From Bacteroidia bacterium (GTDB taxonomy: Bacteria; Bacteroidota; Bacteroidia; UBA8524), in NCBI GenBank assembly GCA_035906255.1, contig JAMIFM010000020.1, positions 3,917 to 67,916 of the forward strand: 64,000 nt of DNA, given 5' to 3'. This document shows positions 12,064 through 12,110 of the stretch, in pieces. Made by a program: the position numbers and the translations under genes. Positions within the stretch are counted from its first letter, which is position 1. Each line of letters opens with the position of its first letter. A model generated the notes under the pieces. It did not search any database and was not told the DNA's origin. It worked only from the letters and a program-made list of their open reading frames with translations.

Positions 12064-12110
12064 AAAAATAGTTTTTAAATGCAACAAAGTTGCATTTAAA
12101 AACTATTTTT
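12064..12110. promoter_or_regulatory. 47-bp perfect palindrome (22-3-22) with core TGCAACAAAGTTGCA; candidate operator and/or bidirectional terminator
   Basis: aaaaatagtttttaaatgcaac-aaa-gttgcatttaaaaactattttt: the reverse complement of the right arm equals the left arm exactly. Its right end overlaps a TATTTTTG -7 box (12104-12111) 5 nt before the ATG at 12116. Confidence 0.6.

Follow-up and report, generated by a model that had tools for sequence, protein, structure and literature searches.

The subject of this study is an intergenic palindrome (positions 12064 through 12110) in a 64,000-nucleotide (nt) stretch of Bacteroidia DNA (GenBank assembly GCA_035906255.1, contig JAMIFM010000020.1; the whole stretch is herein the window), where it separates a C1 peptidase gene from the gene of a flavin adenine dinucleotide (FAD)-dependent flavoprotein. 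Judged from its sequence, the element is a composite operator and promoter, and may be a terminator too. The reading that we favor, and on balance consider probable, is a Zur operator combined with a promoter and a hairpin of terminator strength on a zinc-starvation-induced gene for a dithiol oxidase, with arms that were first copied and then kept. A first-pass annotation of this DNA had proposed an unusually long operator that might also terminate the upstream gene; that interpretation is supported, with refinements. New here is the predicted Zur box with a recurrent, covarying palindromic extension that is fused to a Bacteroidota promoter; the oxidase family's sole characterized zinc-responsive member, DnoP, is without a known regulator.

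Sequence and Fold of the Palindrome

On re-reading, the 47-bp perfect 22-3-22 inverted repeat that had been described proved exact. The left arm (AAAAATAGTTTTTAAATGCAAC, 12064 through 12085) and the right arm (GTTGCATTTAAAAACTATTTTT, 12089 through 12110) are 100% complementary across an AAA spacer (12086 through 12088), and the repeat cannot be extended because A12063 opposes G12111. At the base composition of the window, the chance expectation for such a repeat is 6.3e-9 per 64-kb window. RNA folding gives −25.3 kcal/mol for the plus strand and −23.5 kcal/mol for the minus strand (z ∼ −7), and 0 of 200 shuffles fold as well, which bears out the earlier description of a strong hairpin. A scan of the whole window against Rfam at gathering thresholds returned no family. 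The palindrome starts 24 nt past the stop of the C1 peptidase gene (12040) and ends 5 nt ahead of the flavoprotein ATG (12116); it is thus adjacent to the gene start, as had been stated, but stops short of directly abutting it.

The Core as a Probable Zur-Type Operator

The core of the palindrome, AAATGCAAC-AAA-GTTGCATTT (12077 through 12097), is invariant in orthologs and is found upstream of homologs across the phylum. Its inner 13 bp (GCAAC-AAA-GTTGC, 12081 through 12093) match the RNNNY-xxx-RNNNY rule, the element recognized by one Escherichia coli Zur dimer (PMC4219657), and the 21-bp core and the E. coli/proteobacterial Zur box have the outer AAATG...CATTT in common (PMC4219657). A scan of the window for TGCAAC-N3-GTTGCA with at most one mismatch finds five sites (5553, 5580, 6821, 12080, and 15545), where 0.44 are expected and 0 of 100 shuffles reach five. 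All five are intergenic, and each lies ahead of a zinc-module gene.

Two sets of loci extend this beyond the window. Scanning one genome per species with the flavoprotein yielded 80 loci, all of them from Bacteroidota (Flavobacterium, Chitinophagaceae, Cytophagales, and Saprospiraceae); in most, AAATGCAAC-N3-GTTGCATTT or a near variant stands just upstream of the flavoprotein homolog or of its operon. In Flavobacterium, a divergent Fur-family gene is followed by two boxes, in some cases a COG0523 gene, then the flavoprotein gene and a TonB receptor gene. Exact matches to the 9-3-9 core number 120 in a scan of metagenomes, and many of these sites adjoin homologs of the Fur-family, COG0523, receptor, and flavoprotein genes of the window. 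The first-pass observation that the core is common to zinc-module promoters thus holds phylum-wide: the box stands beside Fur-family, COG0523/ZigA, ZnuA, ZnuD-like receptor, and flavoprotein genes. Counted by Pfam family, the 97 genes directly downstream of metagenome boxes include MerC (8), Pyr_redox_2 (7; this flavoprotein), CobW (6), FUR (6), ZnuA (4), ABC ATPase (4), TonB plug (4), GTP cyclohydrolase II (3), and HisI (2). This mix of genes downstream of perfect boxes is, by annotation, the composition of a Zur regulon.

The candidate Zur is a Fur-family regulator (4277 through 4708, plus strand; Pfam FUR) whose homologs lie beside boxes in Flavobacterium and in metagenome loci. One result weighs against the assignment: the NCBIfam models for Fur, PerR, and Zur score weakly and about equally, all far under their cut-offs, and so these hidden Markov models (HMMs) do not place the regulator as Zur, Fur, or PerR. 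The zinc assignment therefore rests on the regulon, from which we infer both the identity of the repressor and its dependence on zinc. With the regulon and the half-site rule taken together, the core is very likely a Zur-type operator.

The known comparison system is the E. coli znuABC operator (GAAATGTTATA-N-TATAACATTTC) and the Zur boxes of Proteobacteria and Firmicutes. Like these, the box described here is an AT-rich inverted repeat at the promoters of zinc-uptake, COG0523, and zinc-free paralog genes, and overlaps the promoter in a manner suited to repression (PMC4219657). Unlike them, it has the half-site TGCAAC, is phased at −29 or −37 on a Bacteroidota sigma-A promoter, and in about one-fifth of perfect boxes extends into perfect arms of 14 to 26 nt that are not conserved in sequence but covary. 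In the searchable literature we found no published description of a Bacteroidota Zur box or motif, none of such arm extension at Zur boxes, and none of a Zur-regulated thioredoxin-reductase-like gene; the sole thioredoxin reductase encountered there is a PerR target in a cyanobacterium (PMC4628125). The analysis thus supplies a concrete candidate Zur-box motif for Bacteroidota together with its promoter architecture (box center at −29 or −37 from the start).

As a separate observation, MerC-family membrane proteins are encoded by the commonest genes directly downstream of perfect boxes (8 of 97; metagenome loci L081 through L200), which suggests a MerC-type transporter in the Bacteroidota zinc regulon.

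A Predicted Promoter in the Right Arm with a Leaderless Start

The right arm carries a sigma-A −7 box, TATTTTTG (12104 through 12111, plus strand; consensus TAnnTTTG), which runs one base beyond the arm and is followed by CATT (4 bases) and then the ATG (12116 through 12118). That a −7 box lies in the right arm had been noted in the first pass, and its phasing with the box center agrees with this. Across the 168 nonredundant boxes from all loci, TAnnTTTG occurs at offsets of +16 to +18 (21 sites) or +23 to +25 (52 sites) from the box center and almost nowhere else, so that the −7 box is phased in 73 of 168. Within the window, the offsets are +17 at the flavoprotein site, which falls in the +16 to +18 class, +25 at the COG0523 site, and +15 at the receptor site.

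The −7 box of Flavobacterium psychrophilum occupies −12 to −5 (PMC9723704). If the F. psychrophilum spacing applies, G12111 is −5 and +1 is therefore 12116, the A of the ATG; by the same geometry, operator centers fall over the −33 region, at about −29 or −37, where a bound repressor can block polymerase. TAnnTTTG lies 4 to 8 nt before the ATG in 7 of 47 large open reading frames (ORFs) of the window (0.15 expected), including the Zur-boxed COG0523 gene; the start codons concerned are 5560(−), 6791(−), 12116(+), 40703(−), 45462(−), 47810(+), and 62704(+), and the Fur-family gene at 4277(+) has the same arrangement. The geometry of the window predicts a share of leaderless or near-leaderless mRNAs that is unusually high compared with other Bacteroidota. 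Tempering this prediction, leaderless mRNAs are a minority, 3.7 to 5.5%, in the Bacteroidota studied so far. We nonetheless regard it as likely that the right arm is a promoter with a leaderless start. A leaderless mRNA would leave the hairpin outside the transcript and force translation to codon 1, and such a forced start argues against any re-assignment that removes the twin arginines of the product.

No canonical −33 TTTG is present 19 to 21 nt from this −7 box; according to the literature, the −33 motif is not general. The loci fall into two discrete promoter-operator classes, with the −7 box at +16 to +18 or at +23 to +25 from the box center, and in the +23 to +25 class GTTGCA falls at about −35 to −30 and may itself supply the −33 TTG. 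We also considered the left arm as a divergent promoter and rejected it: TATTTTTT, its reverse complement, lacks the G, and the minus strand carries no gene to the left of the arm.

Length and Covariation of the Outer Arms

Outside the core, no arm sequence is conserved between lineages, although complementarity of the arms is often perfect. Among the genome loci, 8 of 8 sites with a perfect core have long arms (14 to 22 nt; one is complementary at 21 of 22), all upstream of the flavoprotein gene. At the 120 metagenome sites, arm lengths of 9 nt (39 sites), 10 nt (20), and 11 nt (19) are followed by a tail that reaches 26 nt, and arms of at least 14 nt occur at 27 sites, against an expectation of ∼0.1 to 0.6. 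Sites beside the flavoprotein gene have long arms in 15 of 18 cases, those elsewhere in 20 of 110 (P = 1e-7, uncorrected for shared ancestry).

Nine orthologous intergenic regions (the window, L201, L001, L202 through L205, L002, and L005), with proteins 62 to 89% identical to those of the window, were compared. In these, 99% of cells are paired and the box core is invariant, while the spacer after the C1 peptidase stop has diverged. The left outer arm (12064 through 12076), composed of the A-tract AAAAATAG and a variable block, mirrors the −7 region, with which it pairs and covaries (12098 through 12110). In five pairs both sides have changed (12 cells): A-T to G-C in the −7 box and its mirror, G-C to C-G, T-A to C-G at two pairs, and T-A to A-T. 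The covariation score is 0.197, compared with 0.083 for shuffles (0 of 500 reach the observed value) and at most 0.069 for slid partners; the mismatches comprise two of G.U type and two of C.A type. Something keeps both arms complementary.

Selection for a hairpin and copying at the DNA level both fit this complementarity, and the two are mutually compatible. Palindromes with arms of at least 14 nt are perfect in 35 of 41 cases, and G.U-type mismatches are very rare; the comparison of G.U with A.C mismatches as a strand test for selection on RNA has too few cases to draw on, since only 6 of the 41 have any mismatch. Locus L101 (1680 through 1830) gives a direct view of arm copying. Compared with four relatives (L138, L091, L136, and L187), in which the corresponding sequence is GCAA..., it has a 9-nt left-arm block, GGCCGGCCA, that differs by six changes at once and is the exact reverse complement of the right arm, in flanks that are ∼90% identical to those of the relatives. 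Through this replacement a box-centered palindrome that had been imperfect, located immediately ahead of a Fur-family gene, became perfect, with arms of 23 nt. In its sequence pattern this is the signature of intramolecular template switching, that is, of an arm copied in one step.

Correction of quasi-palindromes by template switching has been described in E. coli. The arms described here resemble that process in that the reverse complement of one arm takes the place of a block in the other (L101) and that mismatched intermediates are scarce; they differ from it in that the substrate is a regulatory site and the outcome lasts over long evolutionary distances. Our own reading is that copying creates and repairs the long palindrome and that, in the lineage of the window, the result is placed and shaped for use as a terminator or insulator.

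The Extension as a Possible Terminator or Insulator

The first-pass annotation had suggested that the hairpin could terminate the upstream C1 peptidase gene. The suggestion is plausible on several counts. In all nine orthologs the palindrome starts 15 to 25 nt past the stop of the co-directional C1 peptidase gene and has a 5′ A-tract and a 3′ T-tract. Its folding energies (−25.3 and −23.5 kcal/mol) match those of the canonical terminators of the window (−17 to −25.5 kcal/mol; 2350 through 2412, 18909 through 18952, 30711 through 30750, and 48362 through 48412). Over all loci, boxes located 20 to 70 nt behind a co-directional stop have long arms in 9 of 12 cases, compared with 15 of 54 otherwise (P = 0.006).

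Several features count in the other direction. The stem has only 5 G-C pairs of 22, and its U5 run lies inside the stem, paired to the A-tract. The element went uncalled in a scan for consensus sigma-70 promoters and terminators, a scan that is uninformative for this phylum; the 6847–6809 palindrome was called, though on the wrong strand to terminate. Palindromes that are long and perfect and show compensatory changes are likewise found next to a divergent upstream gene (L003, L019, L063, L087, and L163), and termination is therefore not the general reason for the extensions; several examples in tandem contexts have no T-tract. Finally, nearly all long palindromes are perfect, and transversion switches account for two of the five covarying pairs; together with the rarity of G.U pairs, these features fit copying at the DNA level better than selection at the RNA level. 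The match in energy and the flanking tracts thus speak for termination of the C1 peptidase gene, the AT-rich stem and the long palindromes without a co-directional upstream gene against it, and we put the prospect that the extension works as a terminator or insulator at a little under even.

The element resembles bidirectional intrinsic terminators in its A-tract/hairpin/T-tract architecture, its free energy, and its place just past a stop codon. It departs from them in that its stem is long and AT-rich instead of short and GC-rich, in that it houses an operator and a promoter element, and in that its terminator role is a prediction. A further observation concerns the other end of the flavoprotein gene. 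This gene and the TonB-dependent receptor gene are convergent, with stops 4 nt apart (13138 through 13143) and no hairpin between them, an arrangement also seen in L001 and L201 through L205; each transcript should consequently run antisense into the other gene.

The Flavoprotein as a Predicted Exported Dithiol Oxidase

The gene downstream of the palindrome (12116 through 13138, plus strand; Pfam Pyr_redox_2) encodes a 340-residue FAD-dependent protein with the N terminus MNTFASTRRDFFKR and a CPYC motif (residues 173 through 176, positions 12632 through 12643). It had been called an exported, thioredoxin-reductase-like flavoprotein. The FAD flavoprotein with a CxxC motif stands, but the family is to be revised: the protein belongs with the dithiol-oxidase clade of DepH, HlmI, GliT, and DnoP and not with the thioredoxin reductases. 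Its matches in the Protein Data Bank (PDB) are 3fbs (3e-54), DepH (5e-50), HlmI (9e-45), and GliT (2e-38), with true thioredoxin reductases at 1e-23 or worse, the best of them at 3e-23, and it scores 98 bits against the TRX_reduct model, for which the cut-off is 343. Oxidases of this clade use O2 independently of nicotinamide adenine dinucleotide phosphate (NADP) and are distinguished from thioredoxin reductases by C-P/L-Y/F-C in place of C-A-T/V-C and by loss of the NADP fingerprint and its basic ligands (PMC4894451). In the window protein, CPYC lies inside HCPYCHGYE, which is identical in DepH, HlmI, and 3fbs. By pairwise alignment only, ANGDMAYE replaces GGGDxAxE, with both leading glycines lost, and TNGAS-TLKAEQ aligns with the Ala197/Ser198/Asp202 region of DepH, without the paired basic ligands of the NADP phosphate. 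On these features the gene product is quite likely a DnoP-like dithiol oxidase. Since FAD and O2 would suffice for such an oxidase, without NADPH, it could work in the periplasm, and there is no paradox in its export.

Zinc starvation induces DnoP (PA4170), a DepH-group oxidase of Pseudomonas aeruginosa that re-oxidizes dithiol toxins able to chelate zinc, among them gliotoxin and holomycin; how low zinc leads to its induction is not yet known (PMC11317636). The window protein is like DnoP, a likeness drawn via similarity to DepH, in being a DepH-group FAD dithiol oxidase with a CxxC motif that is encoded outside a biosynthetic cluster. It is unlike DnoP in having a Zur-type box directly on the promoter, phylum-wide, a predicted twin-arginine signal, and a TonB-dependent receptor gene that is usually adjacent. 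With DepH, HlmI, GliT, and TdpH it shares the HCPYCHGYE motif and the loss of GGGDxAxE and of the basic NADP-phosphate ligands (PMC4894451); it differs from these four in the location of its gene outside a biosynthetic cluster, in its predicted regulation by Zur, and in the predicted twin-arginine translocation (Tat) signal of its subfamily.

Residues 1 through 37 (12116 through 12226) form an N-terminal extension with a twin-arginine motif (S-T-R-R-D-F-F-K, residues 6 through 13) followed by a hydrophobic stretch, SFWLAAGSFIS. Most homologs begin ∼6 residues before FDVIIIGG, with a short-form start equivalent to M38; a large subfamily of ∼335 residues, including a protein of Zobellia galactanivorans, has an extension of 30 to 40 residues. 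Among 26 long-form homologs (56 to 89% identical to the window protein), nothing ahead of the FAD-binding fold is invariant except R8 and R9, and the consensus of the extension is T-R-R-x-F-I-K followed by the hydrophobic stretch. Relative to the 80%-identical ortholog L001, the first 43 codons contain no indel and differ at 7, 9, and 20 sites in codon positions 1, 2, and 3. The Tat signal proposed in the first pass thus finds support in conservation (the invariant arginine pair, the coding-type substitutions) and in the leaderless geometry. Profile models do not second it, being silent or below threshold: the Tat HMMs (PF10518 and TIGR01409) have no match in the window protein and give a relative 14.7 and 14.3 bits, short of their cut-offs of 22.7 and 16.7, and precomputed Pfam matches of the homologs contain no PF10518. 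Weighing conservation against these scores, we think the protein is probably exported by the Tat system in this lineage.

Known Tat-exported flavoproteins include the flavoprotein of periplasmic methylmenaquinol:fumarate reductase (MFR) and that of flavocytochrome c sulfide dehydrogenase. Like them, the window protein has an RR signal directly before the start of the FAD-binding Rossmann fold, with a weak N-terminal resemblance to the MFR SdhA model; unlike them, it belongs to another enzyme family and has no evident partner subunit. We also observed that M38 (12227 through 12229), which corresponds to the start codon of the short cytoplasmic homologs, is conserved in at least 90% of Tat-bearing homologs; alternative initiation at M38 could give a periplasmic and a cytoplasmic isoform.

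Favored Model and Alternative Explanations

In the model that we favor, for which we infer the transcription start, the termination, the export, and the substrate, zinc-bound repressor on the 21-bp core, centered ∼29 bp upstream of the start, would cover the −33 and spacer region and block RNA polymerase. When zinc is scarce, the repressor would leave and the flavoprotein gene would be transcribed from the A of its ATG, giving a leaderless mRNA that is translated from codon 1 and so includes the twin-arginine signal. The left arm would be a mirror copy of the right, most likely produced and kept perfect by template switching from arm to arm during replication. The A-tract, hairpin, and U-tract would stop read-through from the upstream ECF-sigma/peptidase operon and, being symmetric, would keep out antisense transcription that comes from the convergent receptor gene, leaving the flavoprotein gene to answer to zinc only. 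The product would be sent by the Tat system to the periplasm in this lineage, where it probably re-oxidizes zinc-chelating dithiol compounds.

A competing account accepts the 21-bp core and the −7 box as functional and regards the additional palindromy as a nonadaptive by-product of template switching, in which the selected right arm overwrites the left and any termination is incidental. It draws on the L101 event, where a 9-nt block became the reverse complement of the other arm through six changes between flanks that are ∼90% identical; on the heavy-tailed distribution of arm lengths (27 of 120 at 14 nt or more, with ∼0.1 to 0.6 expected); on the occurrence of long arms in divergent and tandem contexts alike; on outer arms without sequence conservation; on the perfection of 35 of 41 long palindromes and the scarcity of G.U pairs; and on transversion double switches being as common as transition ones (in the orthologs and in L019 vs. 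L063). It sits less well with the persistence of the palindromic state across orthologs 62 to 89% identical, though palindromes are prone to deletion, with the enrichment of long arms at the promoter of one gene family (15 of 18 vs. 20 of 110, P = 1e-7; shared ancestry could explain this) and 20 to 70 nt behind co-directional genes (P = 0.006), and with a hairpin energy equal to that of real terminators. We see this account as possible, though unlikely. Alternatively, the long palindrome might act as DNA, by accommodating extra repressor dimers or by extruding a cruciform under negative supercoiling and so destroying the geometry of operator and promoter. An AT-rich palindrome with a 3-nt spacer favors cruciform extrusion, the palindromes are perfect at the DNA level, and long arms are overrepresented at the promoter of a gene whose oxidase product could be harmful; in addition, the footprint of E. 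coli Zur, which binds DNA as a dimer of dimers, covers 31 bp (PMC4219657). Beyond approximately ±15 from the center, however, there is no conserved sequence for a protein to read, and the outermost 8 bp of the right arm are already explained by the −7 box, which together make a role of this kind improbable.

Two further explanations concern the function of the element as a whole. The box could belong to another Fur-family regulator, Fur or PerR, with the flavoprotein as a thioredoxin-reductase-type enzyme of peroxide or iron stress; the regulator scores weakly and about equally against the Fur, PerR, and Zur models, and PerR regulons can include thioredoxin reductase (PMC4628125). The box regulon is nevertheless a zinc regulon in its content (ZnuA, a ZnuC-type ABC component, ZigA-like COG0523 at 554 bits, a ZnuD-like receptor, GTP cyclohydrolase II, and HisI paralogs), and the enzyme, without an NADP fingerprint, groups with the dithiol oxidases, among them one that zinc starvation induces; we give this explanation very little credence. 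Least of all do we credit the idea that the element only terminates the C1 peptidase gene, as an intrinsic terminator without regulatory function. The location 24 nt past the stop, the −25 kcal/mol hairpin, and the flanking A- and T-tracts would suit it, but the inner 21 bp are invariant and constitute a zinc-gene promoter motif phylum-wide, including in divergent regions that need no termination, and the motif is in fixed phase with the −7 box, so that this explanation was already disfavored.

Implications of the Favored Model

The favored model would give a direct link between a DnoP-type oxidase and a predicted zinc repressor across the whole phylum, where the corresponding route to dnoP in Pseudomonas is still unknown. 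It suggests that defense against, or use of, zinc-chelating dithiol metabolites is widespread in the zinc-starvation response and is periplasmic in some lineages. It also implies that one and the same site can serve regulation and form a hairpin of terminator strength, kept perfect by compensatory change, with arm copying in one step at least once. This is of use for understanding operator evolution, for annotating terminators where Bacteroidota genomes are AT-rich, and as a promoter part that is compact, insulated, and responsive to zinc.

A bolder combination, that Zur operators are self-extending cassettes and that the Zur-controlled oxidase carries out zinc piracy by oxidation, seems to us a long shot. 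If it were true, template switching would grow and repair the Zur palindromes of Bacteroidota and selection would recruit them as portable terminator-operator-promoter cassettes, each able to insulate a stand-alone gene wherever it lands, with a Zur-controlled dithiol oxidase as the usual cargo. In this lineage, a Tat-exported oxidase and the neighboring ZnuD-like TonB receptor might then together strip zinc from the thiol-based chelators of competitors, periplasmic oxidation of the ligand both detoxifying the chelator and freeing zinc for uptake.

The Surrounding Zinc Module

The zinc module of the window begins with the candidate Zur gene. Beyond it, on the minus strand, are a DUF4625 lipoprotein gene (4772 through 5536 or 5560), with two boxes upstream (5550 through 5570 and 5577 through 5597), and a COG0523 GTPase gene (5601 through 6791) that is ZigA-like (554 bits against the NCBI ZigA model) and predicted to be leaderless, with its −7 box at 6796 through 6803. 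Upstream of the COG0523 gene is a second extended palindrome (6810 through 6846), centered on the box at 6818 through 6838. The plus strand then encodes an extracytoplasmic function (ECF) sigma factor (6970 through 7527), a 462-residue ORF without a Pfam match in anti-sigma position (7561 through 8949), an S8 peptidase with a type IX secretion system (T9SS) tail (9108 through 10784), and the C1 peptidase (10871 through 12040), upstream of and co-directional with the flavoprotein gene. The convergent TonB-dependent receptor gene (13143 through 15512, minus strand), for which ZnuD is the best model, has a box at 15542 through 15562 and a −7 box at 15530 through 15537.

The order of Fur-family gene, ECF sigma factor, 462-residue ORF, secreted S8 peptidase (T9SS tail), C1 peptidase, palindrome, and flavoprotein is conserved in L001, L002, L005, and L202 through L205. 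The secreted peptidases are zinc-free, and within a zinc module they might replace zinc metalloproteases or scavenge protein zinc during starvation. The tandem boxes at the DUF4625 gene are 27 nt apart, and those of Flavobacterium, which are short, are 36 nt apart. The minus-strand −7 boxes of the DUF4625 gene lie at 5566 through 5573, overlapping the first box, and at 5593 through 5600, overlapping the second, where TTTG is fused to the half-site as TTTGCAAC.

The window contains another perfect palindrome of 44 bp without a spacer (GATTACGATACGGGCAGGACTT|AAGTCCTGCCCGTATCGTAATC, 4182 through 4225; RNA fold −40 kcal/mol), which sits 37 nt upstream of the −7 box of the Fur-family gene (TATCTTTG, 4262 through 4269). 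We rejected it as part of the same system: it contains no box-like sequence and is absent upstream of the Fur-family gene in L002 and L005.

Two database labels also deserve mention. The contig of locus L001 (CALRQL020000009.1), which has the same gene order as the window and 80 to 99% amino acid identity to it, is labeled as a metagenome-assembled genome of “Agrobacterium sp.”, and a near-identical Fur-family protein, MDL5049053.1, is filed under Oscillatoria amoena; both labels look like binning or contamination errors for a Bacteroidota organism.

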